This document shows positions 7,205 to 34,083 of a DNA stretch of 64,000 nucleotides, piece after piece. The notes under the pieces were generated by a model. The model made no database searches. It was not told the DNA's origin and saw nothing but the letters and a program-made list of their open reading frames with translations. The DNA comes from Gammaproteobacteria bacterium (GTDB taxonomy: Bacteria > Pseudomonadota > Gammaproteobacteria > Ga0077536). The stretch lies in assembly GCA_963662545.2 (NCBI GenBank), contig CAXXLL010000003.1:1312001-1376000 (forward strand). The letters run 5' to 3'. Both the position numbers and the translations under genes were made by a program. Numbering within the stretch: position 1 is the stretch's first letter; each line of letters begins with the position of its first letter.

Positions 7205-7212
7205 CGTTCACC

Positions 7213-14544: not shown

Positions 14545-15324
14545 ATGAATACCCAGACGACTGAACACCGCATTCTGATCGTCAATGACGACGGCATCCA
14601 CTCCCGCGGTATCGCGCTCCTCGAAAACATCGCGCGCGGCATTACGGACGACGTGTGGGTGGTCGCACCGGACCACGAAAAAAGCGGCGCCAGCCATTCG
14701 ATCTCACTGACCATTCCGATCCGCATGCGCCAGCTCGGCGAAAAGCGCTACCAGATCACGGGCACTCCGACCGACTGCGTCCTGATGGCCGTGTCGGTAT
14801 TCATGCGCGATGCACCGCCGACCGTCATTCTTTCAGGTATCAACAGCGGCGCCAACCTGGCGGAGGACGTTAGCTATTCCGGAACGACGGCCGCCGCCAT
14901 GGAAGGGACTTTACTCGGAATACGGTCCATTGCCTTGAGTCAAATTCGCGCGCTCGACAGCCAGGCCGACTTCGCTCCCACGGAAAAGTACGGTCCTGAA
15001 CTCGTCAGGAAGCTGATCGATCTAAAACAGTGGCCTGAAGGCTCTTTTATCAACATTAATTTTCCGAACGTATCTCCGGATGAAGTGACCGGCATCAGGC
15101 TGACGAAACAGGGCCAACGTCCCCCGGGCTCGTTTTCGATCGACGCGCGGATCGATGCGCGATCGCAACCCTATTACTGGGTGAAGATCGCCTACCCACC
15201 CGGCAATGAGTACCCCGGTACCGACCTCCACGCGATTGCCGCCAAGGCCGTATCAATCACGCCGATCAAGATGGACTTCTCCGATCACGACTGGCGCCAA
15301 GCTCTCGACCCAGTCATCGCCTAA
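14545..15324 (+). CDS. surE: 5'/3'-nucleotidase SurE
   Basis: ILIVNDDGIHS, SGASHS, GTPTDCV, SGINSGANL, YSGT. Confidence 0.96.
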   Translation: MNTQTTEHRILIVNDDGIHSRGIALLENIARGITDDVWVVAPDHEKSGASHSISLTIPIRMRQLGEKRYQITGTPTDCVLMAVSVFMRDAPPTVILSGINSGANLAEDVSYSGTTAAAMEGTLLGIRSIALSQIRALDSQADFAPTEKYGPELVRKLIDLKQWPEGSFININFPNVSPDEVTGIRLTKQGQRPPGSFSIDARIDARSQPYYWVKIAYPPGNEYPGTDLHAIAAKAVSITPIKMDFSDHDWRQALDPVIA

Positions 15325-15486
15325 GGAACCTCTGAATAAGTCATGGTGCTTCTGAATGGTTCATGAAATTGTGCAGATCAAGGCACGAATCGCAGGCCAT
15401 AGCGGGGACTAGGGCTAAGGTTCGTAACGCCGAGCTGCGCGATTTCATGGGCAAGGCAGATGTGCCATGATTTATTCAGAGGTTCC
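15325..15486. mobile_element. 162-bp non-autonomous MITE, IS5-like, copy 1
   Basis: Terminal inverted repeats GGAACCTCTGAATAA...TTATTCAGAGGTTCC, flanked by a CTAA direct repeat (15321-24 and 15487-90). Confidence 0.88.
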
Positions 15487-15512: not shown

Positions 15513-16235
15513 GTGAAAGGCGTTTTTTTCGACCTCGGGGGCACCTTATACAGCTACCGCAACGTACCTCGCGCGACCGCACCCCTGTTGATAGAAGCGG
15601 CCGAGCGGCTCGGCCTGATGGCGGATTTCGAAGACATCAAGCGCGCGTACAACCAGGCAGCAAGCGACATGACGGCCGCGTATGCGGCAAAGTCCTATTA
15701 CCTGCACCGAGATTTTTTTCGCGACACCTTCATGCGCTTCGCCGAACTTGTCGGCGGCAAGCCCGATGACTCGGTGCATGCCTGGTATCACGACGCACAT
15801 CGCACCGCGATCATCGATTGCCTGGTATTGAAAGACGATTGCATCGATACGCTGTCACACCTAAAGGATCAAGGGTATTACCTTTCGATCGTGTCGAACA
15901 TTGATGACGACATGCTGCAGCCACTCGTCGTACGCGAGGGATTGGATAAATTTTTCGATCATTGGATGAGTTCGGAAGCTGCGCAGTCCTGTAAACCCGA
16001 CCGCCGGTTCTTCGATGCGGCGCTGGATAAGTCCGGGCTCAATTCGAAGTCGGTGTTATTCGTCGGAGATTCGCCGGAACACGATGTAGCCGGCGCGAAA
16101 GCCGCCGGCATGAACGCCGCACTGATCATCGACGGCGGCATGGAACCGCCGCTGCAGACCGGGCGTGACACCGTGGCACCCGACTATACGATTCATAACT
16201 TGAACGAGTTAAAGGAATTGCTACCCAGGCGGTAA
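15513..16235 (+). CDS. HAD-family hydrolase
   Basis: FFDLGGTL, IVSN, KPD, FVGDSPEHDVAGA. Confidence 0.9.
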   Translation: MKGVFFDLGGTLYSYRNVPRATAPLLIEAAERLGLMADFEDIKRAYNQAASDMTAAYAAKSYYLHRDFFRDTFMRFAELVGGKPDDSVHAWYHDAHRTAIIDCLVLKDDCIDTLSHLKDQGYYLSIVSNIDDDMLQPLVVREGLDKFFDHWMSSEAAQSCKPDRRFFDAALDKSGLNSKSVLFVGDSPEHDVAGAKAAGMNAALIIDGGMEPPLQTGRDTVAPDYTIHNLNELKELLPRR

Positions 16236-19859: not shown

Positions 19860-20645
19860 CTACTGGCGGGCGGCGGTGCCGCCGTCAATCGGCAGCACCA
19901 CTCCGTTGCAATAGGTCGCCTCGTCGGATGCGAGATAAAGACAACCGTAAGCCATTTCCATCGGCGTGCCGGCCCGCGCCATCGGCGTGAGATGTTCGGC
20001 GATCACGGGATCGTCGAAGATGTTCATGACGTCGGCGATCATCGGTGTATCGGTATAGCCCGGGCAAACGCAGTTCGTACGGATATTTTCCTTGGCATAG
20101 GTCGTCGCCATCGCGCGGGTGAGGTTGATCACGCCGCCTTTGGACGCGCAGTAAGTGTGCGCGGTCGTCATGCCGAACATGCCCGAAAGGCTGGCGACGT
20201 TAACGATCGAGCCCCCGCCCTGCTTCTGCATGATGGGGATTATGCCGTGACACAAGTAGTAGCATGCATCGAGATTGATGCCGATCACTTCGTGCCACTT
20301 TTCAGGCGGCGTTGTCGCGATATCGTTCATCGAGTTTTCGCTTTTGTGGCTCCAACTCCAACCGACGCTTGCGGCGTGAACGAGAATATCGATGCGGCCA
20401 TAGGCGCTCATGGTCGCGTCGATTACGTTTTGCGCCTCGGCCTCCGATGAAAGATCCGCGGCCACTACCATGCCCTCGCTACCCGCCTTACGGACTTTAA
20501 TCAACGTATCGTCCAGTGCCGACTGCGTTCTCGATACACCGACTGTCGTCGCGCCTTCCTCGGCAAAGAGCATCATGCACGCCTCACCGATACCCGATCC
20601 GGCGCCGGTGATGATTGCGATCTTTCCTTCTACTCGTCCCGCCAT
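19860..20645 (-). CDS. SDR-family NAD(P)-dependent oxidoreductase
   Basis: TGAGSGIG, YCASKGG, NCVCPG. Confidence 0.93.
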   Translation of the reverse strand: MAGRVEGKIAIITGAGSGIGEACMMLFAEEGATTVGVSRTQSALDDTLIKVRKAGSEGMVVAADLSSEAEAQNVIDATMSAYGRIDILVHAASVGWSWSHKSENSMNDIATTPPEKWHEVIGINLDACYYLCHGIIPIMQKQGGGSIVNVASLSGMFGMTTAHTYCASKGGVINLTRAMATTYAKENIRTNCVCPGYTDTPMIADVMNIFDDPVIAEHLTPMARAGTPMEMAYGCLYLASDEATYCNGVVLPIDGGTAARQ

Positions 20646-20656
20646 CTTAGTTTCCC

Positions 20657-21844
20657 CTAGATCATTTCGATCAACGTGGCATTCGCCATGCCGCCGCTCT
20701 CGCACATCGTCACCAGACCGCAACGCCCGCCCCGTGCTTCGAGCGCGCGCAGCAGGTTGGCAACCAGGCGCCCGCCCGAAGCGCCGACCGGGTGGCCGTG
20801 CGCGATGGCGCCTCCAAACACATTGAGCTTTTCGGGATCGGTACCAAATTCCTTCGCCCACGCCAAGGGTACGGAGGCAAAGGCCTCGTTGACTTCATAG
20901 GCATCCACCTGGTCGAGCCCGATTCCGGCCCGCTCCAGAAGTTTAGTCGTCGCGGGGATGACGCCGGTCAACATCATGACCGGGTCGTCGCCGGCGACGG
21001 CGAAATGCGTCACGGCGGCGCGCGGTGCGAGCCCGAGCCGTACGGCGATCTTCTCTTCGGCGATGAGCATCGCGCTCGCGCCGTCGGTCACCAGGCTCGA
21101 ATTGCCTGCCGTGACACGCCATTCGATTTCCGGAAACCGCTGTTTCATTTCCTCGTTCTCGAAAGCCGGCTTCAAGCTGGCAAGTTTTTCCAGGGTCGAG
21201 CCCGAGCGAATGCCTTCGTCTTCGGCAACGATCCGCTTGACGCTTGCGTCGGTGTCGATTTCGATCGGTGCGATGTCTCCGGCGGCGCCGCCTCGATCGC
21301 CCTCGGCGAGTTGATGGGATCGCAAAGAAAAGCGATCGAGTGCCTCGCGGTCAAGCCGCCAGCGTGCCGCGATCAGTTCCGCGGAGATACCCTGCCGTAC
21401 CAGCCCTGCGGGGTAACGCGCGTGAAAACGGCCGCCCTCATTGTCCTTACCCATCCGATTGACGCGCATGGGGACGACGCTCATCATCTCGACGCCGCCC
21501 GCAATGACAAGATCGTAGGCGCCGGCGATGACGCCTTGCGCCGCAAAATCCATCGCCTGCTGCGCGGAGCCGCACTTGCGATCGAGCGTGACGGCCGGCA
21601 CCGATTCGGGCAGGCCCGCTGCCAGGACCGCCTGTCTCCCGATGTTGCCCGCCTGTTCCGCGACCTGGATCACGCAGCCGGTGATGACGTCCTCGATCAG
21701 GACCGGGTCGATCCCCGTCCGCTGGACGAGTGCCTCGAGCACGTGCGCGTATAGATTAACCGGGTGCAGCGAAGCCAGAGCGCCCGTGTCGCGACCGCGC
21801 CCGAACGGCGATCGCACGATATCGATGATGACCGCGCGGCGCAT
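20657..21844 (-). CDS. Thiolase (acetyl-CoA C-acyltransferase)
   Basis: DRKCGS catalytic Cys, NEAF, GHPVGASG, TMCESGG. Confidence 0.94.
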   Translation of the reverse strand: MRRAVIIDIVRSPFGRGRDTGALASLHPVNLYAHVLEALVQRTGIDPVLIEDVITGCVIQVAEQAGNIGRQAVLAAGLPESVPAVTLDRKCGSAQQAMDFAAQGVIAGAYDLVIAGGVEMMSVVPMRVNRMGKDNEGGRFHARYPAGLVRQGISAELIAARWRLDREALDRFSLRSHQLAEGDRGGAAGDIAPIEIDTDASVKRIVAEDEGIRSGSTLEKLASLKPAFENEEMKQRFPEIEWRVTAGNSSLVTDGASAMLIAEEKIAVRLGLAPRAAVTHFAVAGDDPVMMLTGVIPATTKLLERAGIGLDQVDAYEVNEAFASVPLAWAKEFGTDPEKLNVFGGAIAHGHPVGASGGRLVANLLRALEARGGRCGLVTMCESGGMANATLIEMI

Positions 21845-21967
21845 GTCTAATTTGCTGTCCCGCAATAAGCCTTCATAATTCGCTGGTCCTCGCGCCTTGT
21901 ATCGCACCACGAGTCCTGCGGGACCCAATGACAAATATTATTGGGAAGTTTATTACGGGACAGTACA

Positions 21968-23428
21968 TTAGCTCGACTTGCGTAGCGACAGTTCGAGATC
22001 GCTAGATATGACCTCGATCACGGGCGAAGTCGCGAGCTGCATGAGTCGCCGCACCTGATCGAGTTCGGGCGAGGAGAGATACGGATAAGTCGTCTTGACC
22101 GGGCCGGAGGTCCGCATTTTTTCGAGGCCTTCGCCGGCGACGAGCGCACATAGGATCAGTTCGTCATCGTCGTCGGTACCGTACTCCTTGCGCAGGTCCT
22201 CTATGCTCGGTTGTGGCGGGGGATTCGCTAATACCTCCTTCGCGCGTGCCGAGGACATGATCATGTCCATGACACTTTCATCGATTGGGCCGGCGGTTTC
22301 TCCATAATAACCGGCGGCATACTGAATGACTTGGTCCGGGATCGAGGAATAGCGCTTGCCGGTTACGATGTTCAGCACCGCCTGGGTGCCCACGAGTTGG
22401 CTAAAGGGTGTCGCCATTCCAGGATAACCGAGTTCGCGGCGAACCACCGCGGTTTCCTCGAGCACTTCGTCGATGCGCTCTCGCATGCCGTGCTGCACGA
22501 GTTGCGCCTTAAGCGTGCCGATCATGCCGCCCGGGATCTGATGCCGGATCGAGAGCACGTCGTACTCCGAATACTGATTGACCAGAAAACCTGCCGCTTT
22601 GCCGACTTTTTCGAAGTGCTCCGCCACCGGCGGCAGCAGACTGATATCGAGATCGTGAGTGTGTCCCAGCAGTTCAACGTTGCGCACCATGATCTCAGTG
22701 GAGGGCACGGAAGGGCCGTTAGCCAGCGGACGGATAGCGGTGTGCAGAATACGCACCCCCAGATCGATGGCATCGAGGTAGGCTTTGGCAGACTGTCCAA
22801 GCAGATTATTCGAATGGAATTCGATGGGCTTGCCCCGCGCTTTCTCGCGGATGGCCGGCAGCAAGGTCGCCATGCGCTCCTTCTCCAGCACACCGGCCGT
22901 ATCGTAGAGCAGGAGCGTGTCGATGTCCGGTGACGCCGACAGCTTGTCCGCCTTATCCGCGTAGTATTCGTCCGAATGTACCGGGCTCAAGGTGAACATG
23001 ATCGCACCCGCGATATCCGATCCAAACTCCTTGGCAAGCTTCGCCAGCCGCAGCGTCTTATCGATATTGAACAAAACGTCGTAGATCCAGAAGCTGCGCA
23101 CGCCGTGCACGTTCAACTGCCGCATCCACGCATCCATCAATGCGTCCGGCGTTACGCCGAAAGTGACCGAGGCGTTGGAGCGCATGCCGGCGCGGATCCG
23201 CGTGCGCGGCATCGAGGCCACGATCAGGTCGAGGCCCTCCCAGGGATTTTCATAAGAATACTTGATGAGAACCTCGAACATGGACGAACCGGTCAGGTCG
23301 ACGACCCAGTAGCCCGTGCGATCGATTATCGGTGTCACGGGCAGCGCCATGCCCGCCTGCATGCGCATGCCCCAAAGGCTTTGCTGCCCGTCGCGCATGG
23401 TTTCATCGAGAAAATTAATGTGGGCCAT
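21968..23428 (-). CDS. Pyruvate-carboxylase/OadA-type carboxyltransferase subunit (XccA-like), stand-alone
   Basis: DETMRDGQQSL, HQIPGGM, LGYPGMATPFSQLVGTQA; no biotinyl domain fused. Confidence 0.88.
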   Translation of the reverse strand: MAHINFLDETMRDGQQSLWGMRMQAGMALPVTPIIDRTGYWVVDLTGSSMFEVLIKYSYENPWEGLDLIVASMPRTRIRAGMRSNASVTFGVTPDALMDAWMRQLNVHGVRSFWIYDVLFNIDKTLRLAKLAKEFGSDIAGAIMFTLSPVHSDEYYADKADKLSASPDIDTLLLYDTAGVLEKERMATLLPAIREKARGKPIEFHSNNLLGQSAKAYLDAIDLGVRILHTAIRPLANGPSVPSTEIMVRNVELLGHTHDLDISLLPPVAEHFEKVGKAAGFLVNQYSEYDVLSIRHQIPGGMIGTLKAQLVQHGMRERIDEVLEETAVVRRELGYPGMATPFSQLVGTQAVLNIVTGKRYSSIPDQVIQYAAGYYGETAGPIDESVMDMIMSSARAKEVLANPPPQPSIEDLRKEYGTDDDDELILCALVAGEGLEKMRTSGPVKTTYPYLSSPELDQVRRLMQLATSPVIEVISSDLELSLRKSS

Positions 23429-24827
23429 CGACGGTTTCTCTCTCGTTCATTTTAAGTTCGGGTAAATAAGTGTGTTCGAGCCAGCGGGTATGAATGGTAT
23501 TGGCTTCGAAATCGGGGTGGGCGGTGATGCCGCGCAAAATTGGCAGATTCGTAACCAGGCCTTCGATCTGAAACGCGTCCAGCGCAAGGCGCAACCGCGC
23601 CACGGTCGCGCGCCGATCCGCGGCAGTGACGATCAGCTTCGCGATCATTGAATCGTAAAATGGGGGCACCTGGTAGCCGTCGTGACAATGGCTGTCGACG
23701 CGGATCCCGGCTCCCTCGGGCGGCCGCCACCGCGTGATGCGGCCCGGACACGGCTGGAATCCGCGGGAGGGATCTTCGGCATTGATGCGGCATTCGATCG
23801 CATGCCTGGTAACGTGGATCTGATCCTGTCGACCCAGGACGCGTTCGCCACCGGCGATACGGAACTGCGCCTGAACGAGATCGACGCCTGTCACCTGTTC
23901 ACTGACCGGATGCTCGACCTGAATGCGGGTATTGACCTCGATGAAATAATAAGCTTCACGACCGGCGTCGTAGATGAACTCCACGGTCCCGGCGTTCATG
24001 TATTTCATCGACGACAGCAAGTCCACGGCGGCTTGATGGAGCTCATGGCGGACATGTGGGGGCATTGCAGCGCAGGGCGCTTCCTCGATGACCTTCTGGT
24101 AGCGACGCTGCACCGAACAGTCGCGTTCACCGTAATGCACGACGCGCCCCTTGCCGTCACCGATCACCTGCACCTCCACGTGCCGCGCGTTCTCGATATA
24201 GCGCTCCATGTACATCGTGCCGTCGCCGAAGACCTCCTCGGCCTCGGCGCTGGCTTTGTCGAATGAGGATTCGATATCACTCGCCTCGCGAGCCACGAAC
24301 ATGCCGCGACCGCCACCGCCGGCAGACGCCTTGATGACGACTGGATAGCGGATTTCTTTCGCGGCGACGACGGCCGCGCCCGCATCGGCAATTTGATCGG
24401 TGCCGGGGGCCAGCGGCACGCCCGCCGCCGCGGCAATTTCTCGCGCGCGGAGCTTGTCACCCAAGGCGTCGATGGTGCTGGCGCTGGGCCCAATGAAAGT
24501 GATCCCGTTATCCGCGCACAGGGTTGCGAGCTCGGCGCGCTCCGCAAGAAAGCCGTAACCGGGATGGAGCGCATCACAGCCCGTCGCCTTCGCCGCGTGT
24601 ACAACAAGCCTGGCGTCGAGGTAGCTTTGCCGGGAAGGCGCCGGTCCGATAACCACGACCCGGTCGGCCATACGTGCGGCTACGCTGTCGCGGTCCGCTT
24701 GGGATACCGCCTGCACGGTTTCGATGCCGAGCGCCTGCGCGGCCCGGATTACCCGTACCGCGATCTCACCGCGATTGGCCACCAGAGTGCGCTTGACGGC
24801 CACTGTTCCGGGATTACCTGATGGCAC
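23415..24827 (-). CDS. Biotin carboxylase subunit
   Basis: ANRGEIA, HPGYGFLAE, GGGGRGM, ERDCSVQRR, EVNTRIQVEH, YDSMIAK. Confidence 0.96.
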   Translation of the reverse strand: MPSGNPGTVAVKRTLVANRGEIAVRVIRAAQALGIETVQAVSQADRDSVAARMADRVVVIGPAPSRQSYLDARLVVHAAKATGCDALHPGYGFLAERAELATLCADNGITFIGPSASTIDALGDKLRAREIAAAAGVPLAPGTDQIADAGAAVVAAKEIRYPVVIKASAGGGGRGMFVAREASDIESSFDKASAEAEEVFGDGTMYMERYIENARHVEVQVIGDGKGRVVHYGERDCSVQRRYQKVIEEAPCAAMPPHVRHELHQAAVDLLSSMKYMNAGTVEFIYDAGREAYYFIEVNTRIQVEHPVSEQVTGVDLVQAQFRIAGGERVLGRQDQIHVTRHAIECRINAEDPSRGFQPCPGRITRWRPPEGAGIRVDSHCHDGYQVPPFYDSMIAKLIVTAADRRATVARLRLALDAFQIEGLVTNLPILRGITAHPDFEANTIHTRWLEHTYLPELKMNERETVDGPH

Positions 24828-24865
24828 CGTTTGGGCGGTGGCGAAAAAAGAAATTTTTCACCCGT

Positions 24866-25330
24866 TCATCGGGCACTTGGATCGATGATGGCCAGGGGTT
24901 GATCGAATTCAACCATCTCCGCATCGTTGACGCAGATCTCGTGCACCACGCCCGCCACTCCGGCCCTGACCGGGGTGAATAGTTTCATGACCTCGATGAG
25001 GCAGATCTCGGTGTCCTCCTCGATCGCCTGCCCGATTTCGACGTACGACGGTGAGCCGGGCTTAGGTGCGCGGAAAAACGTCCCCAAGTTCGGCGCGCAC
25101 ACGACCACCATGCCCTCAGGAATCACCACCGGGGCCGGCGCTGCGGGCTCATGGGGCGTCTCACCCGTGGACGCGGCTGCCTCCAACGCTACGGCACGCG
25201 GACCTCGGGCTCCTGGGACGTTGGACAGAAAGAGTTCCAGGCCCTCGATCTTGAGGTGCATTTCCTCCCAGTCGGATTGATTAAAAAGGTCGACGAGGGT
25301 CTCGATGTCCTCGGCGCTCGGCTTGGTCAT
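24866..25330 (-). CDS. Biotin carboxyl carrier protein
   Basis: APNLGTFFRAP, biotinylation motif EVMKL, VEFDQPL. Confidence 0.93.
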   Translation of the reverse strand: MTKPSAEDIETLVDLFNQSDWEEMHLKIEGLELFLSNVPGARGPRAVALEAAASTGETPHEPAAPAPVVIPEGMVVVCAPNLGTFFRAPKPGSPSYVEIGQAIEEDTEICLIEVMKLFTPVRAGVAGVVHEICVNDAEMVEFDQPLAIIDPSAR

Positions 25331-25363
25331 GGTCGATTTCCTCGATTGCAGATTCTTGATTCA

Positions 25364-25525
25364 GGAACCTCTGAATAAGTCATGGTGCGTCTGAATTGTT
25401 CATGCAATTGTGCAGATCAAGGCACGAATCGCAGGTAATAGCGGGGACTAGGGCTAAGGTTCGTAACGTAAGGCTCCGCGCTTTCATGGGCAAGGCAGAT
25501 GTGCCATGATTTATTGAGAGGTTCC
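25364..25525. mobile_element. 162-bp non-autonomous MITE, IS5-like, copy 2
   Basis: Same length as copy 1 with only scattered substitutions; TIR GGAACCTCTGAATAA...TTATTGAGAGGTTCC; TTCA direct repeat (25360-63 and 25526-29). Confidence 0.88.
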
Positions 25526-25526
25526 T

Positions 25527-27284
25527 TCAGTCGTCCAGCGTACCGGCTCGCGCATGGATGGCCGCAAGCATCACCACCAGCGGATGCCGCGCAACGATCG
25601 ACTCGACGCCGCACGACAGCGCCGCCTTAACGCCCGCGTCGGTCTCGATGGCGCCGCCCCGCACGGCGCGGCAACCGTTCAACAAGCCCGCAAGCTTCTC
25701 CGGATCCTCCGCGCCGTCAATGCCATCCAGATCGAGCAACTCATGCTCCACGGTCACGTTGGTGGCGAGCACGCGTAGTGGACACGCCTGTGCAGCCCAA
25801 TCGGCTAGTTTGCGCAAGCACGGATCATCGGCTTCGCTGGGCGAAATCATGTCGAGTTCACCGGCGAATACCCGCCCCTCGTTGGCATCGACCGTCACCA
25901 TCTCGCCGGCGAGCGCTGTGACTGAGCCATCGCCGCAACCGACGATACTCGGTTTACCGAGGTCACGGCTGACGAGCGCCGCGTGCGAGGTCGAACCGCC
26001 CCGCTCGGTGATCACGGCTTGGCTCGCGATGATGCCGTGAATGTCTTCCGGACTTGTCGTCGCGCGCGCGAGTACGACGTCTTTACCGGCAGCCTGTAGT
26101 TTTTCCGCTTCATCGGAGTCGATCACCACGACGCCACGCCCCACCCCCTGGCAGGCCGGTTCGCCTTGCGCGAGAACGCGCGCGCCCTCCTCGGCCCGCT
26201 GCGCGAGCCGCGGTTTGAGCAAGGACCGGACCTGCTCCGCCGTGACCCGTGACAAGGCGGTCGCCGGCTCGATTCTCCCCTCGTCCACCATGTCGACGGC
26301 GCAGCGGACCGCCGCCTGCGGTGCACGCTTGGCCGAACGGGTCTGCAATAAAAACAATGTCCCTTGCTGCACGGTGAATTCTATATCCTGAACGTCATTG
26401 TTCGCGTCTTCGAGCGTCCGCGCGGCGCGCACCAGTTGATCGTAAACTTCGGGCAGTGCTTCGCCGAGCGCGCTCAAGGGTTCAGGCGTAAATTTTCCCG
26501 ACACCACATCCTCGCCCTGCGCGCAATGAAGGTATTCACCATAAGGGGCTAAATCGCCCGTCAACGGATTGCGGCTGAACAGGACGCCCGTCCCGGAACG
26601 ATCGTCGAGATTGCCGAACACCATGGACTGTATCGTCACGGCCGTACCGAGGTTGTCTGCAATGCCGTGATGCTTGCGATAGCGCTTGGCGCGTCGGGAA
26701 TTCCAGGATGCGAAGACCGCCTCGATCGCGGCCCTTAACTGCACGCGCGGATCCTCGGGAATCTTCCCTGCGCCGAGTTTTTCGATGACGGCCCTGAGCG
26801 TCCGTAGATCGCCGTCACCGAGGTCCGGCAAGGTCTGCCTGAGCACGATGCTCGCATAGAGTTCGAGGAATCGACGGTGGGTATCGCGCGCGAAGGCGTC
26901 GTCACCGGACTCCGCTGCCAGTGCGCGCTCGGTGGTATCGTTGATGCCGAGGTTCAGCACGGTATCCATCATGCCGGGCATGGAAATCGCAGCGCCCGAA
27001 CGCACCGACACGAGCAGCGGCCGATCGCCCGCCCCGAAATCCCGTGCCGTGGCGGACTCGAGCCAGGCGATGGCCGCGTCGAGTTCCGCCTCCAGCTTTT
27101 CCGGAAGCGCCGAGGATTCGAGATAAACCTGGCAAGCAGCCGTCGTAATGACCACCGCAGGCGGTACCGGCAGGTCCAGGCTTCGCATGTGCGCGATCGA
27201 CCACGCCTTACCACCGATCACTGCGCGCGTGGGTAGCGCACTCCCATCGATCGCCAGGATGAATTGACCGAACTCGTGTGCCAC
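25527..27284 (-). CDS. PPDK-like protein (ATP-grasp plus phospho-His domains, lacking the C-terminal pyruvate/PEP-binding barrel)
   Basis: LLVSVRSGAAISMPGMMDTVLNLG, AQGEDVVSG, QDIEFT, LQTR, GGSTSHAA; only ~100 aa follow the His domain. Confidence 0.88.
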   Translation of the reverse strand: MAHEFGQFILAIDGSALPTRAVIGGKAWSIAHMRSLDLPVPPAVVITTAACQVYLESSALPEKLEAELDAAIAWLESATARDFGAGDRPLLVSVRSGAAISMPGMMDTVLNLGINDTTERALAAESGDDAFARDTHRRFLELYASIVLRQTLPDLGDGDLRTLRAVIEKLGAGKIPEDPRVQLRAAIEAVFASWNSRRAKRYRKHHGIADNLGTAVTIQSMVFGNLDDRSGTGVLFSRNPLTGDLAPYGEYLHCAQGEDVVSGKFTPEPLSALGEALPEVYDQLVRAARTLEDANNDVQDIEFTVQQGTLFLLQTRSAKRAPQAAVRCAVDMVDEGRIEPATALSRVTAEQVRSLLKPRLAQRAEEGARVLAQGEPACQGVGRGVVVIDSDEAEKLQAAGKDVVLARATTSPEDIHGIIASQAVITERGGSTSHAALVSRDLGKPSIVGCGDGSVTALAGEMVTVDANEGRVFAGELDMISPSEADDPCLRKLADWAAQACPLRVLATNVTVEHELLDLDGIDGAEDPEKLAGLLNGCRAVRGGAIETDAGVKAALSCGVESIVARHPLVVMLAAIHARAGTLDD

Positions 27285-27318
27285 GGTGATGGTTGATGGG
27301 GTCGGTTGAAGGCTACAT

Positions 27319-27391
27319 TGAAGGGGTCAAGTCTTCAACTTTCTACATGACGTTTTACGTCATGTAGAAAGTTGAAGACTTGACCCCTTCA
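27319..27391. repeat. Perfect 35-bp-arm palindrome with GGGGTCA ends
   Basis: TGAAGGGGTCAAGTCTTCAACTTTCTACATGACGT-TTT-ACGTCATGTAGAAAGTTGAAGACTTGACCCCTTCA, followed by an extra half-site AGACCTGACCCC. Confidence 0.92.
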
Positions 27392-27416
27392 GGCCCCAGA
27401 CCTGACCCCGTTTTTA

Positions 27417-28655
27417 TCAACGCCCGAGCAGCGTGATGCAGGCTACCGCCTCCTCGAAACCGCAGATGCCGCCGCCGTTCTGGGCGATGGCGATTTTTGC
27501 ACCCTCGACCTGGCGTTTACCGGCTTCGCCGCGCAGGTGGGTCACGAGTTCATAAATCTGTCCGAGACCCGTCGCACCGATCGGATGGCCCTTGGATTCC
27601 AGACCACCGGATGGGTTGACCGGGATACGGCCACCGAGGCTGGTGTCGCCACGTTCGCCCGCGACGCCGCCTTCACCGATGGGACACAGACCGATAGCCT
27701 CGGTTTCCATGACCTCGCCGGTCGCAGTGGCGTCGTGTACCTCGGCGACATCGACATCTTCAGGTCCGACACCCGCCTGCTCGTAGGCCTTGAACGCGCC
27801 GAGCCGACTGGCGTGTTTTTCGAGATCGGCCGCGGCGCGATTGCTGCCCCCCTGTAGCACGCTCGCCAGCACGCGCATCGTGCGCGACCCCGACGCACCG
27901 ATGCGCTTAAGCCCGGCCTCGTTGCATACGATGGCGGCAGCAGCGCCGTCGCTCACGGGAGAGCACATCGGCACGGTTAGAGGATAGGTGATAGGCGCGG
28001 CTGCCAGGATCTCGTCTACGGTAAACGCTTTTTGGTATTGCGAAAGCGGATTCATGGTCGAATGGTTGTGGTTCTTCGAGGCGATCGCGGCGAGCTGGCG
28101 CTGCGTCGTTCCGAATTCGCGCATGTGCATGCGAGAAAATCCGGCGTAGACGTCCATGAATACCGAGTACGGGCGCGGCGAGGTGGACCCTTCGGGTACC
28201 TCGACCCCTTCGCCCAGTTGCAGCAACTGGTTCTTGACGTTCTCTACGTCGTTCACGTCCCAGGCGCCGTCGAAGGCGCTGAACATGAGTTCCTTATCCT
28301 CGGAAAACATCTTCTCGACGCCGATGGCGAGCGCGATGTCCGCGGCGCCGGCCTTGACGTAATTCACTGCCATGTGGAAAGCGGTGCTGGCGGTCGCACA
28401 GGCGTTTTCGACGTTGACCACCGGGATACTCTCGATACCGAAGGCCCGGAGCGCAATCTCGCCGCGCACCATGTCCTGGCCCTCCATGTGACCCTGAACG
28501 CAATTGCCGAAAAAGACCGCCTCAAGGGCTTTGACGTCGCAACCGGCATCTTTGAGCACGCCGGCTAGGGCTTCGCCGGCGAGGTCTTTCAGACTGCGAT
28601 CGAGGTGTTTACCGAAATGCGTCATGCTGACGCCGGCCACGTACATTTCACTCAT
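27417..28655 (-). CDS. SCP2-type thiolase (BbsB/lipid-transfer-like)
   Basis: [32 protein letters not shown]. Confidence 0.92.
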   Translation of the reverse strand: MSEMYVAGVSMTHFGKHLDRSLKDLAGEALAGVLKDAGCDVKALEAVFFGNCVQGHMEGQDMVRGEIALRAFGIESIPVVNVENACATASTAFHMAVNYVKAGAADIALAIGVEKMFSEDKELMFSAFDGAWDVNDVENVKNQLLQLGEGVEVPEGSTSPRPYSVFMDVYAGFSRMHMREFGTTQRQLAAIASKNHNHSTMNPLSQYQKAFTVDEILAAAPITYPLTVPMCSPVSDGAAAAIVCNEAGLKRIGASGSRTMRVLASVLQGGSNRAAADLEKHASRLGAFKAYEQAGVGPEDVDVAEVHDATATGEVMETEAIGLCPIGEGGVAGERGDTSLGGRIPVNPSGGLESKGHPIGATGLGQIYELVTHLRGEAGKRQVEGAKIAIAQNGGGICGFEEAVACITLLGR

Positions 28656-28862
28656 GATCCTGTTCCTCTCAACTTTTCACCGCATACCGCAGGCGCGGGA
28701 TTTTTCGGAGCCGACTATGTTACTGGGCTTGGGACGTTCTTTGCCACTCGGAACGGCAGGATACGGCTGCACCCCTGCTAAGCCCGGAAATCTCACCGGG
28801 AATCGGGATCCTGGTCCAAGCCCGCCTCGTGAGATATCCAGGCCAGGCCAACGGCGGCATGG

Positions 28863-28891
28863 TTGACAAGGGACGCCGTGTCGCAGAGATT
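28863..28891 (+). promoter_or_regulatory. Possible sigma70 promoter for the acx-like operon
   Basis: TTGACA, 17-bp spacer, then GAGATT; the -10 match is weak. Confidence 0.3.
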
Positions 28892-29063
28892 GTGTTTAGC
28901 GCGCCCGATCGCGCCAATAACAATGAAAGAGCTCAATCGCCCGAACCGTTTGAACTAAGCAATTGCTGCGCACCCGTACGGTAACGCCGGGAATCCGCAT
29001 CCAATACAAAAAGAGCCCTGCGGGGTCACAACTCCGCGGGACGACCATCGAGGAGCAGGAAAT

Positions 29064-31211
29064 ATGGCTGCGAGAAGGCCACGCGCCCGCAAAGGCACTA
29101 ACTGGATAGCGCTCGACGCCGGCGGCACCCTGACTGACGCCGTCATCGTTGATAAGCAAGGGCAGTTTCTGGTCGGCAAACATCTGACCAACAAACAGGA
29201 CGAATCACAAAGTTTCCTCGGCGCGATCAGAGACGCTACCGACACCGCGGATCGCGACCTCGACCAGACGCTTGGCGCAAGCGACGTCATCGTCTACGCC
29301 GGTACCATCATGTTGAATACCCTGCTCAGCAAGACCGGTGCCAAAGTCGGTCTCATGGTCAGCCAGGGCTTCGAAGACTATCTGCTGATGGAGAAAGGCG
29401 AAGGCTCCTGGATCAGCTATCCGTATTCCGATCGCCTGCATACCGTGACACACCACCACGCGGATCCCACGATCCCGCGCAACCGTATCGTCGGCATCCA
29501 GGGGCGGCTCGATATGTTCGGCGGCGAAGTCATCCCGCTGCGGAAATCCGATGTCGAAGAACAGACCCGGGTGCTAATCGATGAAGGCGCCGAATCGATC
29601 GCGGTGATGTTCCTGTTCTCACACATGGATCCAGTGCATGAACAACTCGCCGCCAAACTCATCCGTAAGATCGATAAAAAAATTCCGATCATTCTCTCTT
29701 CCGAAATCGCCCCCACGCACAAGGAATACACCCGTCTGTCGAGCGTGGTCGCGCAGGCCTATGCGGGTGAGCGTGCGCGAACCCATTTCAAGCGGGTCGA
29801 GGCGCAAGCGCGCGCCCATGGGTTCAACAAGGAAGTGTCCACGCTTCTCGCACACGGTGGAACCGTTCCGATCAGCACCAAGCGACTCTACGAATCCTAC
29901 GTCTCGGGTCCCGTGGGAGGGGTACTGGGCGGTCACTACGTGGGCGAAATCATGGGCTCGGGCAACGTCGTCGGCTGTGATATCGGCGGCACCAGTTTCG
30001 ACGTCGGCATCATTCGCGACGGTATCATCCCGATCATCCGCGAACCGACCTTGCTCAGTTTCCGTACCAACATCCCGATGATCCATACCGAGTCGATCGG
30101 CGCCGGCATGGGCTCAGAACTCGACGTGCATCCGCTGACCGGCAAATTGACGGTCGGGCCGAAAAGCGCGGGCTCCGACGTCGGACGCTGTCTCAATTGG
30201 GACTTACCGACCGTCACGGACTGCCACATCCTGCTCGGCTACCTCGACCCGAACAATTTTCTCGGCGGCGACGTGCCGCTGGATCTGGATGCCGCGGTCA
30301 AAGCGCTCGAACCGATGGCCAAGCATTTCAACACCAAGACCTACGAATTCGCGGAACGCGCCCATCTGCTGGTGTGCGACTACATGAAGGAATTTCTGGT
30401 CAACATGCTGCGCGGACGCGGCTACGACATCCACGAATACGTTCTGATGATGTACGGCGGTGGCGGACCGCTAGGCCTTGCCGACGTCGTCGAGGGACTG
30501 GAATTCAAGGACATCGTCACGTTTCCGTTCGCCGCCGTATTCTCCGCCTTCGGCGTGCTATGCGCGCCGCGGCGCTACCGCTACCACCACAGCATCGTAG
30601 CGGGCTGCCCGCCGGGCGTGGACGATCACATCGTGGGGGTCAAGCAAGCGGCGATCGAATCCATCAACGCCACCTGGAAGCAACTGGAGGCGCGCGCCAA
30701 AGCCGATTTCAAAGGGCATGGCTGGAACTTCAGCGACGCCAAGCTCAACCATTTTGTCTACGTCCGCTTCACCAACCAGTTATCGGACTTCGAGGTGTTG
30801 TGGGACAGCCCGCGGCTCAAGTCGACCGCCGAGCTCGACCAGTTGATGAAACGTTTCGAATCGGTCTACACCACGATCTATCCCGAACAGGCACTGGAGT
30901 CGGAATCCGGCTACCAGATTCTCGAGGTGGCGCTTGCGGCCGACATCGACACGCCTAAGCCGAAGATCCCGATCATGACGATGTCCCGCAAAAAGCCGCC
31001 TTCGGCATCCGAAAAAGGATCGCGCAAGGTTTACTATCGGGGCAAACGCCGCGAATTCCGCGTTTACGAAATGGACGAGCTCAAGGCCGGCAACGTGGTC
31101 AACGGTCCCGGCATTATCGAGCATCCGGCGACGACGTTTTATATACCGCCCGGGCATCACGCCGCATTCGACAAGCGGCGCCTGATTCACTATCGCAAAG
31201 GCACGAAATAG
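29064..31211 (+). CDS. acxA: Acetone-carboxylase beta-subunit-like protein (hydantoinase A/oxoprolinase family)
   Basis: LDAGGTLTD, SGPVGGVLG, DIGGTSFDV, YGGGGPL, GPGIIEHPATT; 715 aa. Confidence 0.88.
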   Translation: MAARRPRARKGTNWIALDAGGTLTDAVIVDKQGQFLVGKHLTNKQDESQSFLGAIRDATDTADRDLDQTLGASDVIVYAGTIMLNTLLSKTGAKVGLMVSQGFEDYLLMEKGEGSWISYPYSDRLHTVTHHHADPTIPRNRIVGIQGRLDMFGGEVIPLRKSDVEEQTRVLIDEGAESIAVMFLFSHMDPVHEQLAAKLIRKIDKKIPIILSSEIAPTHKEYTRLSSVVAQAYAGERARTHFKRVEAQARAHGFNKEVSTLLAHGGTVPISTKRLYESYVSGPVGGVLGGHYVGEIMGSGNVVGCDIGGTSFDVGIIRDGIIPIIREPTLLSFRTNIPMIHTESIGAGMGSELDVHPLTGKLTVGPKSAGSDVGRCLNWDLPTVTDCHILLGYLDPNNFLGGDVPLDLDAAVKALEPMAKHFNTKTYEFAERAHLLVCDYMKEFLVNMLRGRGYDIHEYVLMMYGGGGPLGLADVVEGLEFKDIVTFPFAAVFSAFGVLCAPRRYRYHHSIVAGCPPGVDDHIVGVKQAAIESINATWKQLEARAKADFKGHGWNFSDAKLNHFVYVRFTNQLSDFEVLWDSPRLKSTAELDQLMKRFESVYTTIYPEQALESESGYQILEVALAADIDTPKPKIPIMTMSRKKPPSASEKGSRKVYYRGKRREFRVYEMDELKAGNVVNGPGIIEHPATTFYIPPGHHAAFDKRRLIHYRKGTK

Positions 31212-31244
31212 ATCGCTGTGCCGAGTTACGAGACGATTAATGAA

Positions 31245-31302
31245 TCGCCCGCAAGCCGGCCCCTACAACATTGCCTCCGTAGGAGCTCGCTTGCGGGCGA
31301 AC
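31245..31302. repeat. Inverted doublet of GTAG-family REP elements
   Basis: TCGCCCGCAAGCCGGCCCCTAC...GTAGGAGCTCGCTTGCGGGCGAAC, between acxA and acxB. Confidence 0.75.
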
Positions 31303-31330
31303 AACGCTACCAGATGAAGGAAATCCTTCC

Positions 31331-33562: not shown

Positions 33563-33573
33563 GGGGACGAACA

Positions 33574-34083
33574 ATGGCAACACAAGCACAAAGCGATAAA
33601 GAAGTGACCCGCGCGCTCGTCCGCCGCGAGCTGGGCTGGCCGGAACTGTTCAAGCTGATGCGCGAACCAAAATCCGAAAACCGCTTCGACGATATGCTCG
33701 CGGCGATGCAGGAGATCGTGCCGTGGAAAGAGAAGATCCTGATTCCGCTTGGTGAAAACCTCTTCATCGTCGCCAAGAACGGCAAGGCCATCATCAAGAC
33801 CATGGCGGGCGCCGAACTCTGCGCCTGGAACGAGAACTGGAAGATGAAATGCCGTGTCATCATCAGAAAGACGACGGCGGATCTGAAAAAGGTGTTCCCG
33901 GCGGAACACCTCACCATCGATAGCAAGCTGGTCGAGATCCGCGAGTGGATCTGTCCCAAGAGCGGCATGCTGCTCGACGTCGACTGCGTGCCGCCGACCT
34001 ATCCGGTCGAGATCGACTTCACGCCGGATTTAAAGACGTTCTATGAAGATTGGCTGGGCCGGAAACTTCCCGTAAAACTCTGA
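33574..34083 (+). CDS. acxC: Acetone-carboxylase gamma-subunit-like protein
   Basis: 169 aa; ILIPLGENLFIV, ENWK, REWICP, DFTPDLKTFYEDWLG. Confidence 0.85.
   Translation: MATQAQSDKEVTRALVRRELGWPELFKLMREPKSENRFDDMLAAMQEIVPWKEKILIPLGENLFIVAKNGKAIIKTMAGAELCAWNENWKMKCRVIIRKTTADLKKVFPAEHLTIDSKLVEIREWICPKSGMLLDVDCVPPTYPVEIDFTPDLKTFYEDWLGRKLPVKL

Follow-up and report, generated by a model that had tools for sequence, protein, structure and literature searches.

A barrel-less pyruvate, phosphate dikinase-like protein encoded beside a biotin-dependent carboxylase, and its possible role in ketone phosphorylation

The short pyruvate, phosphate dikinase (PPDK)-like protein P0001, found in the 64,000-nucleotide stretch of gammaproteobacterial DNA analyzed here (hereafter the window), is an intact, complete and conserved dikinase module without the barrel domain, and not a broken PPDK. 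On balance, and with modest confidence, we consider it to be the ATP-using subunit of a multi-protein small-molecule kinase, which feeds a pathway of biotin-dependent ketone carboxylation. The features concerned are listed in Table 1.

Table 1. Features of the window, and related genes elsewhere in the same genome
Feature	Location	Strand	Basis or remark
Short PPDK-like dikinase P0001, 585 aa	25527..27284 (incl. stop)	-	PF01326 + PF00391, NF004531
ATP-grasp nucleotide-binding domain, ~residues 1-345	26250..27284	-	PF01326, structural alignment
Swivel phospho-His domain, residues 363-478	25851..26198	-	PF00391, structural alignment
His434 codon	25983-25985	-	catalytic His, swivel domain
C-terminal tail, residues 480-585	25530..25847	-	AF2 model, structural alignment
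MITE-like repeat between dikinase and BCCP genes	25363..25526	.	inverted repeat arms, BLASTN
Biotin carboxyl carrier protein (BCCP)	24866..25330	-	PF00364
Biotin carboxylase (BC)	23415..24827	-	PF00289, PF02786, PF02785
PycB/OadA-type (5S) carboxyltransferase (CT)	21968..23428	-	PF02436
Thiolase, acetyl-CoA C-acyltransferase type	20657..21934	-	PF00108, PF02803
SDR oxidoreductase	19860..20861	-	PF13561
SCP-x/"lipid-transfer" type thiolase-like protein	27417..28655	-	PF22691, PF00108; directly upstream of dikinase
SurE-type phosphatase (5'/3'-nucleotidase family)	14545..15324	+	PF01975; NF001490 315 bits
HAD gene	15513-16235		adjoins SurE gene; not conserved with operon
Trio (see text) + tyrosine-phosphatase-like gene + second SDR	contig C2, 1306417-1309454		away from dikinase
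CoA ligase	C3:193787-195235		outside window

The P0001 reading frame has a GTG start codon in the ORF list. The Pfam search assigned PPDK_N (PF01326, E 1.3e-43) and the PEP-utilizers domain (PF00391, residues 401-470, E 5.2e-20) to the protein, and the barrel family PF02896 gave no match in it; the TIGR01828 match stops at residue 513. These assignments, together with the BCCP, BC and CT genes lying downstream on the same strand, confirm the original prediction of a PPDK-like module without a pyruvate-binding domain placed before a biotin carboxylase trio. In NCBIfam, the score for NF004531 was 735.4 bits against a cut-off of 456, residues 2-579 covering positions 5-531 of the 534 in the profile; since full-length PPDKs also pass this cut-off, the match does not define the short form. 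The protein carries GGSTSHAALV with the catalytic His434, and G429, G430, T432, S433, H434, A435 and A436 are invariant in the alignment of 66 family members including P0001.

The AF2 model of P0001 (pLDDT 91.6, pTM 0.87) was superposed by VIA-align on PPDK of Clostridium symbiosum (1kbl) over 572 of 585 residues, with Z 36.4, rmsd 4.4 A and 35% identity. The two proteins share the ATP-grasp domain, the linker and the swivel His with its Thr-Ser-His motif, but P0001 misses about 290 residues of the PEP/pyruvate TIM barrel of PPDK (EC 2.7.9.1). The same program aligned residues 363-478 with the PPDK phosphoryl carrier domain 2fm4 (Z 16.8, rmsd 1.7 A), residues 5-327 with HpeI 9goj (Z 15.6), residues 6-319 with the ATP domain of rifampin phosphotransferase 5hv6 (Z 18.1), and the model with RPH 5hv3 (Z 21.6).

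The C-terminal tail had been taken for a coherent short domain rather than a product of frameshift, and the model agrees with this: the predicted fold is alpha-beta-beta-alpha-beta-alpha-beta-alpha, and the 10-residue blocks of residues 481-580 score 88-96 in AF2. The Pfam His domain is followed by 115 residues, the tail itself comprising about 105, and the tail consensus is conserved across the family, with the 476-aa operon copy of Sandaracinobacter (L005) lacking the tail. Structural alignments with full PPDKs reach P0001 residue 582 and chain residue 873, which is the C-terminus, and those with PEP synthase and rifampin phosphotransferase end at P0001 residues 475-476. Judging from the models, the tail is probably a vestige of the lost PEP/pyruvate TIM barrel. 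By hhalign, its N-terminal part was placed weakly on the linker and the first strand (E 0.022); a match of the last 40 residues to the final strand and helix of the barrel was not recovered by this program, which placed the C-terminal half on an unrelated region (E 0.079), and this match is a guess from consensus likeness seen by eye and from the structural alignment reaching the chain C-terminus.

At least 120 homologues of the dikinase are present in public data. The 120 best are 553-619 aa long (median 582; 570-600 aa in 116), and the G.TSHA motif was found in 116 of them. Truncation by the MITE-like repeat, a proposed objection, did not occur: close homologues are about 580 aa long, and the element begins immediately past the stop codon of the dikinase gene. 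A separate barrel gene, the other objection, is absent, the PF02896 barrels of the genome lying only within a PtsI-like protein and PEP synthase. The scan of related loci gave mostly full-length PPDKs (71 of 80 loci have 38-47% identity, with the match ending by about residue 515), and only L003-L011 were informative, L007 and L011 being contig ends.

Short forms are found also apart from the carboxylase. Two genomes in the sample of the class (G204 and G381) contain short open frames of 548-552 aa and lack the 516-aa protein described below, and in three actinobacterial loci (L006, L008 and L009) there is no carboxylase within 10 kb; therefore, short PPDKs function in other settings too. In the FastTree tree, the actinobacterial short forms with no carboxylase nearby group near the operon-linked ones, the support of the union being weak (0.235).

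Comparison was made with nine other loci (L003, L004, L005, L010, L113, L114, L115, L118 and L119) from Alpha- and Gammaproteobacteria, Thermoleophilia and Rhodococcus, which represent Proteobacteria and Actinomycetota. The gene order PPDK-like, BCCP, BC, CT and thiolase recurs in most of them, the thiolase following CT in seven, and the operons are tightly packed with overlapping genes. The dikinase module is coupled to the carboxylase trio in a conserved operon; such co-occurrence had been proposed for checking. On a plasmid of Rhodococcus pyridinivorans, the annotated order is PEP-utilizing enzyme, hypothetical protein, AMP-binding protein, hypothetical protein, PPDK, BCCP, BC, CT, OB-fold protein, thiolase and tyrosine phosphatase. 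An SDR gene follows the thiolase also in L113, L114, L115 and L005, and homologues of the SCP-x type protein are present in L004, L119, L118 and L010. The SurE gene is near the operon here and in L113, L115, L004 and L119; Y_phosphatase3 adjoins both the trio and the CoA ligase gene in this genome and occurs elsewhere in L004, L006, L118 and L129. No HAD gene was found in the nine operon loci, which have Y_phosphatase3 and SurE instead, and no ring-cleavage or other diagnostic genes conserved beside the operon were seen in the window and the related loci.

Three further proteins accompany the short PPDK: a 245-aa second swivel-His carrier with a TRSH motif, a 516-aa protein and a 200-aa protein (hereafter the trio). 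All three are present, together with the short PPDK and CT, in all nine other loci, and the 200-aa gene is directly upstream of the short PPDK gene in every one of them, even though the order is shuffled in L119 and L010. Proteins of 722-729 aa fuse the 516-aa and 200-aa parts (58% identity to P0124, E 7e-80), and an ORF of Nocardia uniformis fuses a short PPDK to a domain like the 200-aa protein P0124 (34% identity, E 1e-28). At least 968 homologues of the 516-aa protein were found in public data; in the class it is present in 4 of 401 genomes, and the same four hold a tail-bearing short PPDK. Because of the co-occurrence, the constant adjacency of the 200-aa gene and the Nocardia fusion, the trio proteins appear, from sequence comparison, to be better candidates for the phosphotransfer partner than CT. 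A co-fold of the 516-aa and 200-aa proteins with dikinase residues 355-585 scored 0.00 against a mark of 0.32 and is counted neither for nor against this partnership.

The trio proteins belong to no Pfam family except for a weak PF00391 match. Searches with the 516-aa protein returned no usable match in the ESM Atlas and nothing below E 0.2 among PDB sequences; the best values were E 0.18 in Foldseek and Z 3.6 among 48,161 chains in the wide VIA-align search. Faint START/SRPBCC-like rows were seen for this protein at probability 0.04-0.06.

In the present genome the trio is encoded on another contig (C2). It is the orthologue of the stand-alone module of the relatives, the His carrier and the 516-aa protein being 77-79% identical and the 200-aa protein 61%, and not of their in-operon copies, to which identity is 55-66%. 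It follows that this genome has lost its in-operon trio, and the two loci are assumed to cross-talk. Since genomes with two modules have one dikinase, action in trans is plausible.

The CT is of the HMGL-like/PYC_OADA barrel type, which is metal-dependent and binds keto acids, and it is the only one of its type in the genome, no paralogue having been found by tblastn (G000). It is the best conserved protein of the set, with 58-80% identity in eight of the nine loci and 46% in Rhodococcus, and the dikinase has 50-63%. Its best named NCBIfam families are pyruvate carboxylase subunit B and oxaloacetate decarboxylase, but it stays under every cut-off (NF006761, 318.6 bits against 402). In a tree of 19 rows, the ten CTs of the short-PPDK system form a clade (100/99), separate from the OadA rows and sister to a clade of four CTs (100/100), with the union supported at 99/96. 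The gene context was viewed for three of these four sister CTs, and all three have genes of AcvAB-type or MarK-type kinases and of HAD phosphatases as neighbors; these loci were recognized from gene context and annotation, not by comparison with characterized proteins. Identity between the CT and the context-identified Acv/MarK-type CTs is 35-38%.

To our knowledge, kinase-coupled biotin ketone carboxylation has been known only since 2022, for lignin-derived aryl ketones and with two kinase types. The systems used for comparison were Hpe of Rhodococcus rhodochrous GD02 (hpeHI-CBA-D-E-F), Acv of Sphingobium sp. SYK-6 (acvABCDEF), Xcc of Aromatoleum aromaticum EbN1 and the MarK variant of Novosphingobium; for acv, a preprint gives the order acvAB-C-D-E (10.1101/2022.04.28.489975). 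The known systems resemble the window in having a kinase followed by BCCP, BC and a PycB-like CT, an order found also in a Rhizobium locus (L124). They share with the proposed pathway the logic of phosphorylation followed by biotin-dependent carboxylation, and also the later phosphatase, CoA ligase and C-C cleaving enzyme. HpeCBA is described as carboxylating the phosphorylated ketone only, and the phosphate of this sister system as being on a distal hydroxyl and surviving carboxylation (PMC9618137).

The kinases differ. Those described for the known systems are a two-component PpsAB-type dikinase (HpeHI/AcvAB) or the UPF0261 kinase MarK, whereas the present system has a barrel-less PPDK, a single chain with its own swivel, which is joined by the His carrier and by two proteins that fall into no known family. 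The phosphatase of the known systems is HAD, in contrast to the tyrosine-phosphatase-like or SurE enzymes of the short-PPDK system. The ending of the latter is thiolytic and no aromatic genes are conserved nearby, unlike in Hpe/Acv/Xcc/MarK. Phenylphosphate synthase and rifampin phosphotransferase have the same ATP-grasp and swivel-His domains as P0001, and transfer the phosphate to the hydroxyl of a substrate other than pyruvate, which is bound on a domain or subunit of its own; they have one swivel domain against two in the short-PPDK system, and the 516-aa and 200-aa proteins, the candidates for holding the substrate, show no detectable likeness to the rifampin-binding domain or any solved fold. 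A literature search for the short-PPDK gene set found no published account but only the Hpe/Acv/MarK and VadK papers.

The architecture alone is not new, as the original prediction had allowed. It matches NF004531/PRK05878 and resembles VadK (Rv1127c) of Mycobacterium tuberculosis, a truncated PPDK which likewise has ATP-grasp and swivel His without the barrel, autophosphorylates on this His, binds methylcitrate-cycle enzymes and tunes flux (PMC13400623). The two differ in that VadK is described as a methylcitrate-cycle regulator, and P0001 keeps a probable barrel vestige of about 105 residues and sits in a carboxylation operon.

In the mechanism which we prefer, the ATP-grasp domain would load phosphate from ATP onto the swivel His434, by analogy with the chemistry of PPDK and VadK. 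As the pyruvate barrel has apparently shrunk to a vestige, the phosphate would have to leave in trans, and its most likely acceptor would be the trio, which may bind the substrate and pass the phosphate on to it. Once phosphorylated, the ketone would be the substrate of BCCP/BC/CT, on the analogy of HpeCBA, and the carboxylated product may be dephosphorylated by the tyrosine-phosphatase-like enzyme or SurE, activated by the CoA ligase and cleaved by the thiolases; the SDR may make the ketone out of an alcohol. A candidate substrate is a methyl ketone whose hydroxyl, phenolic or of another kind, can be phosphorylated, or the enol of such a ketone. The system would be split in this genome, the window holding the dikinase, carboxylase, thiolases and SDR, with the trio on C2 and the CoA ligase on C3. 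Phosphorylation for the carboxylase fits the Hpe/Acv pathways, whose CTs, as identified by gene context, form the sister clade. Against this explanation stand the position of the trio away from the dikinase and its orthology to the stand-alone module, the MITE-like repeat before the carboxylase genes, the need for two swivel-His domains, the lack of conserved diagnostic genes beside the operon, and the short PPDKs of other contexts.

If this explanation is right, kinase-coupled biotin ketone carboxylation would gain a third kinase type, structurally unrelated to the other two. It would combine a PPDK lacking its barrel with another phospho-His carrier and a pair of proteins outside all known families; the confident model of one of this pair matches no solved structure. 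It would give a role to many genes named "pyruvate, phosphate dikinase" or "hypothetical protein", show what may become of PPDK after the loss of its barrel, complementing the regulatory VadK, and point to an unrecognized catabolic route of soil and marine bacteria for an apparently common ketone.

A broader possibility, to which we give a rather low but real chance, is that the one dikinase per genome acts as a general "enzyme I", driven by ATP, in a small-molecule phosphorelay and charges several interchangeable substrate-specific modules. Each module would consist of a His carrier, a 516-aa and a 200-aa protein with its own phosphatase and SDR, and the genes of some would lie at a distance from the dikinase gene. 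The whole would amount to a PTS-like His-to-His relay, serving catabolic activation of ketones or alcohols, not sugar uptake, and built on a fold absent from solved structures. The window would then present a natural trans case, with the dikinase and the only module on different contigs.

The candidate partner named in the original prediction was CT. The idea of a kinase acting on the carboxylase substrate with a partner is favored by the sister CTs of Hpe/Acv, but the trio fits the part of the partner better, and we regard docking on CT as improbable. Here the phospho-His domain would dock on the CT TIM barrel and phosphorylate the enolate of the bound ketone. Carboxylation of the enol phosphate would follow at that site and release the phosphate, as happens in PEP carboxylase or acetone carboxylase, and the trio would have an accessory or regulatory part. 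The joint encoding of dikinase and CT in all nine other loci, the high conservation of CT, its metal-dependent keto-acid-binding barrel and the neighboring acetone-carboxylase-like operon speak for such docking. It leaves unexplained the strict co-occurrence of the trio and the fusions, and neither a fusion nor an adjacency was seen that would single out the dikinase-CT pair. The conserved phosphatases would be needless if carboxylation released the phosphate, and in the sister system the distal phosphate outlasts carboxylation (PMC9618137).

Similarly small is the chance we assign to a regulatory kinase of the VadK type, which would control pathway enzymes such as the carboxylase or thiolases by protein phosphorylation or binding, with no phosphorylated metabolite. 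VadK is a precedent, as a truncated autophosphorylating PPDK tuning flux (PMC13400623); the actinobacterial short forms without a nearby carboxylase group near the operon-linked ones, although weakly, and the associated phosphatases are of a protein-tyrosine-phosphatase-like family. However, the gene lies inside tightly packed catabolic operons, as do the Hpe/Acv substrate kinases, the CT clade is sister to carboxylases described as needing a phosphorylated substrate, and the scan of the window ORFs turned up no methylcitrate synthase or dehydratase family.

Slightly less probable still is that the family functions elsewhere and a decaying remnant is seen here, with four upstream genes lost, a MITE gained and no working set of partners. 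The in-operon trio genes are missing and the stand-alone module alone remains, the CoA ligase gene has been relocated, and a MITE-like element sits inside the operon. Against decay, all reading frames are intact, P0001 keeps every family-invariant residue, identity to orthologues is 62-80% without frameshifts, and the single dikinase of two-module genomes makes trans action plausible. An ordinary PPDK with a split pyruvate carboxylase at the PEP-pyruvate-oxaloacetate node is very improbable in spite of the NCBI family name "pyruvate, phosphate dikinase" and the best named families of CT, since P0001 has no PF02896 and the genome no free barrel, CT is below every NCBIfam cut-off in a clade apart from the OadA rows, and the operon also has thiolases, CoA ligase, SDR and phosphatases.

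Some details of the neighborhood may be added. The MITE-like repeat is 163 bp long with terminal inverted repeats of 45 nt, and has 240 BLASTN rows in the genome, of which 60 are listed at 81-100% identity; the dikinase-BCCP gap is 196 bp here versus about 60-130 bp in six other loci. Scanning 24800-29100 for sigma-70 promoters gave no candidates, and the coding (minus) strand showed no terminator-like site there. The BCCP scored 98.7 bits on TIGR00531, under the cut-off, and the BC 607.7 bits on NF006367. For the SCP-x type protein, the best NCBIfam families are thiolase-domain and lipid-transfer-protein families (299 bits), with a BbsB-like family at 196.7 bits, and no OB-fold (DUF35) gene was seen beside it in the window ORF list. 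An acetone-carboxylase-like operon lies divergently next door in the window. The true start of the thiolase is probably near residue 31, and that of the SDR probably near residue 70, because the listed SDR frame overlaps the thiolase.

The 585-aa protein (short PPDK, with catalytic His434) contains the PPDK ATP-binding domain PF01326 (E 1.3e-43) and, in residues 401-470, the swivel domain PF00391 (E 5.2e-20) with the phospho-His motif GGSTSHAALV, and the PEP/pyruvate barrel PF02896 gave no match to it in the Pfam search. This open reading frame and its domains, together with the biotin carboxyl carrier protein (BCCP), biotin carboxylase (BC) and carboxyltransferase (CT) genes listed below, confirm the original prediction of a PPDK-like module without a pyruvate-binding domain placed before a biotin carboxylase trio. 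The gene is untruncated. The NCBIfam profile NF004531 (PRK05878) matches residues 2-579 on profile positions 5-531 of 534 with 735 bits (cut-off 456), and the best 120 homologues from the protein collection range in length from 553 to 619 aa (median 582; identity 59-92%), have PF00391 and PF01326 as their sole Pfam domains and, in 116 cases, retain G.TSHA. In the genome of the window (G000), PF02896 matches only within a PtsI-type protein (585 aa) and a PEP synthase (788 aa). Because the profile match is near end-to-end, the homologues are equally short and no separate PF02896 gene is present, neither of the two explanations regarded beforehand as fatal to this reading, i.e., close homologues that are full-length PPDKs or a separate PPDK C-terminal gene elsewhere, holds.

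Features of the window around the short PPDK gene
Feature	Position	Strand	Remark
Short PPDK	25527-27284	-	ORF, GTG start, 585 residues
MITE-like element	25363-25526		163 bp, 45-nt inverted ends; starts directly after short PPDK stop codon
BCCP	24866-25330	-	downstream of short PPDK
Biotin carboxylase	23415-24827	-	downstream of short PPDK
Carboxyltransferase, PycB/OadA type	21968-23428	-	downstream of short PPDK
SurE orthologue	14545-15324		
Second MITE-like copy	15324-15486		immediately after SurE
Acetone-carboxylase-like three-gene set	29064-34083	+	divergent from operon
MtrB/PioB-type porin and multihaem cytochrome	5255-8184	-	adjoining genes
Dense catabolic region	35936-63016		rest of window

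The short PPDK gene has an SCP-x type thiolase-like gene upstream, and the CT gene is followed by a thiolase and then an SDR gene. The dikinase-BCCP gap of 196 bp houses the MITE-like element, for which 240 BLASTN match rows were obtained in G000, with 81-100% identity among the 60 matches listed.

The system was found in nine other loci: an alphaproteobacterial MAG (L003), Tepidamorphus (L004), Sandaracinobacter (L005), Thermoleophilia (L010), the genomes G302, G129 and G051 of our class sample (L113, L114 and L115, respectively), Rhodococcus pyridinivorans plasmid pA (L118), and a Novosphingobium resinovorum plasmid (L119). All nine encode the short PPDK, the CT and three partner proteins, namely a His carrier, which is about 245 aa long and matches the PF00391 swivel domain weakly, and two proteins of about 516 and 200 aa belonging to no Pfam family. 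In every locus the 200-aa gene immediately precedes that of the short PPDK on its upstream side. A CoA ligase and thiolases accompany these genes, often with SDR, SurE and tyrosine-phosphatase-like genes and sometimes with acyl-CoA dehydrogenases, and no conserved aromatic genes accompany the operon in the loci examined. Gene order differs in L119 and L010, and in L010, where the contig ends close by, neither BC nor BCCP was seen.

None of the three partners is encoded in the window. A tblastn search against the genome found them once in G000, together, on contig C2 (1306417-1309454), in the order Y_phosphatase3, His carrier (P0123, motif GGTTRSH), 516-aa protein (within P0122), 200-aa protein (P0124) and SDR, and a CoA ligase orthologue (70% identity) adjoins another Y_phosphatase3 gene on contig C3 (193787-195235). 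The C2 module is orthologous to one that stands alone in the related G129, with identical gene order and identities of 77, 79 and 61% for the His carrier, 516-aa and 200-aa proteins, respectively, whereas the C2 trio shares only 55-66% identity with the in-operon copies of relatives. Since the C2 trio is nearer to stand-alone than to in-operon copies, we infer that the in-operon partner set was lost from G000, where the stand-alone set persists. The stand-alone module of G129 has neither an ATP-grasp nor a carboxylase gene within about 8 kb. The divergent set in the window consists of Hydantoinase_A (715 aa), Hydantoinase_B (743 aa) and Acetone_carb_G (169 aa) genes, all with NCBIfam scores far below the caprolactamase and acetophenone carboxylase cut-offs, and a second, caprolactamase-like hydantoinase A/B pair (549 bits; cut-off 1000) is located just upstream of the C2 module (L116:12698-16677); both halves of the split system thus adjoin ATP-dependent hydantoinase-type enzymes.

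In the 401 genomes sampled from the class, the 516-aa protein was found in four (G000, G129, G302 and G051), the same four in which a short open frame carries an NF004531 match that extends to profile position 531. The short open frames of G204 and G381 (548-552 aa) end near profile position 485, and these two genomes lack the 516-aa protein; in the remaining 48 of the 54 genomes with NF004531 matches, the open frames are 740-1022 aa and are read as probable full-length PPDKs. With all candidates scored, the short PPDK is single-copy in all four of these genomes, and since G129 and G302 each have two copies of the 516-aa gene, partner modules outnumber dikinases in relatives. Proteins of 722-729 aa are fusions of the 516-aa and 200-aa parts (58% identity to P0124, E 7e-80), and a single open frame of Nocardia uniformis (L006:9974-12106, plus strand) unites a short PPDK with a domain resembling P0124 (residues 517-702; 34% identity, E 1e-28), followed downstream by a Y_phosphatase3 gene, with no biotin carboxylase within 10 kb. 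These Rosetta-stone arguments, which are not proof, suggest that the dikinase and the 200-aa and 516-aa proteins work as one enzyme. The model of the 516-aa protein is confident (pLDDT 89.6, pTM 0.90), and comparison with solved structures gave no convincing match (Foldseek best E 0.18; VIA-align best Z 3.6 against 48,161 chains). This protein has 968 homologues at E 1e-5 or better, and in the best 120 of them the named ones are all 'hypothetical protein' and none has a Pfam domain.

In the Hpe pathway of R. rhodochrous GD02, the two-component dikinase HpeHI is described as phosphorylating 4-hydroxyacetophenone and acetovanillone, the phosphorylated ketones as the only ones carboxylated by the biotin enzyme HpeCBA, and HpeD as stripping the phosphate before a CoA synthetase and a hydrolase complete the route (PMC9618137; PMC12167813). 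The acvAB-C-D-E-F genes of Sphingobium SYK-6 are reported in the order of Hpe with a PycB-like CT (preprint 10.1101/2022.04.28.489975), and in Novosphingobium the UPF0261 kinase MarK is reported in place of the dikinase (PMC12624787). Three plasmid records were assigned to these two known kinase types (Acv, MarK) by gene context: L124 of Rhizobium has a PEP-utilizing enzyme and a PEP/pyruvate-binding protein, and L120 and L122 a Tm-1-like ATP-binding protein, each followed by BCCP, BC, CT and HAD. In a maximum-likelihood tree of 19 CTs, each cut to the first 480 residues with all rows kept, the 10 CTs of the short-PPDK system form one clade (support 100/99), whose sister clade consists of four CTs, three of them from Acv- or MarK-type contexts (100/100; union 99/96); kinase-less PycB-accB-accC clusters branch next, and OadA rows are outside. 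From this sister position, the CT here is the nearest relative of the known phospho-ketone carboxylases, outside their clade. No description of this gene set was found in the literature searched. The kinase-less clusters of the Burkholderia sp. THE68 (L123, 5980-9392) and Cnuibacter (L125, 5926-9344) plasmids, whose CTs branch just outside the kinase-coupled clades, neighbour acetoacetate decarboxylase, or 3-oxoacid CoA-transferase, thiolase and BioY genes, and may serve the biotin-dependent carboxylation of acetone or other small ketones.

We propose that ATP would load His434 via the ATP-grasp domain, as shown for relatives, and that, with no barrel left, the phosphate would pass in trans to the His carrier and from it onto a substrate that the 516-aa and 200-aa proteins would hold as a pair. 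BCCP/BC/CT would carboxylate the phosphorylated ketone, the phosphate would be removed by the tyrosine-phosphatase-like enzyme or SurE, and the CoA ligase and thiolases would release acetyl-CoA and acyl- or aroyl-CoA. One of these phosphatase families is known for aryl phosphates, which gives a hint, and no more, of a phenolic phosphate as the phosphorylated group. The original interpretation, in which the protein phosphorylates an enol or phenolic substrate held by a partner, is supported in part. Direct phosphorylation of an enol on the CT, one candidate partner named there, is a less likely alternative that accounts for neither the three partner proteins nor the phosphatases. The short-PPDK system with its His carrier is a candidate for kinase-coupled ketone carboxylation.

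The AlphaFold2 model of the short PPDK, for which 66 sequences were used, has high confidence along its whole length (pLDDT 91.6, pTM 0.87) and predicts an alpha-beta-beta-alpha-beta-alpha-beta-alpha fold for the C-terminal tail. With VIA-align, 572 of its 585 residues superpose on the PPDK of C. symbiosum (1kbl; Z 36.4, rmsd 4.4 A), spanning model residues 6-582 and residues 2-873 of the 1kbl chain, which is longer by about 290 residues, and alignments to PEP synthase and rifampin phosphotransferase end at model residues 475-476. Because the 1kbl alignment reaches the chain end, the tail coincides with portions of the PPDK barrel as far as the C-terminus. With hhalign, the first half of the tail matches the linker and first barrel strand of PPDK weakly (E 0.022) and the second half gave nothing against PPDK; the end of the tail resembles the PPDK C-terminus by eye, a lead only. 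The tail is probably what is left of the barrel after deletion of its catalytic core, for which sequence support is weak. It is conserved within the family (W496 invariant, about 20 positions at least 90% conserved); the Sandaracinobacter operon copy (476 aa) is without it, and the Nocardia protein has another domain in its place.

VadK (Rv1127c) of M. tuberculosis is described as a truncated PPDK that autophosphorylates on the swivel His and regulates the methylcitrate cycle (PMC13400623), and resembles the short PPDK by this published description. In a FastTree of the first 478 positions, whose midpoint root is distorted by a single long-branch row, the short forms, both operon-linked and actinobacterial, group apart from full-length PPDKs; support is 0.894 for nine operon-linked rows including that of the window, with the Rhodococcus row outside, 0.956 for three actinobacterial rows, and only 0.235 for the union of the two groups.

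An orphan 381-aa protein (L132:1462-2607, minus strand; C2 near 308.8 kb), the fifth PEP-utilizer-type phosphocarrier of G000, carries a strongly matching swivel-His domain (PF00391, E 4.9e-21) at its C-terminus, and its N-terminal portion of about 300 residues is assigned to no family. In the window, the outer-membrane porin and the cytochrome, which has paired CXXCH motifs, look like an extracellular electron-transfer module. The catabolic region includes a Rieske oxygenase alpha subunit, esterases, malonyl-CoA decarboxylase, a PQQ alcohol dehydrogenase with a cytochrome c domain, luciferase-like monooxygenases, a molybdopterin hydroxylase, a family III CoA-transferase, an acyl-CoA carboxyltransferase and two amidases.
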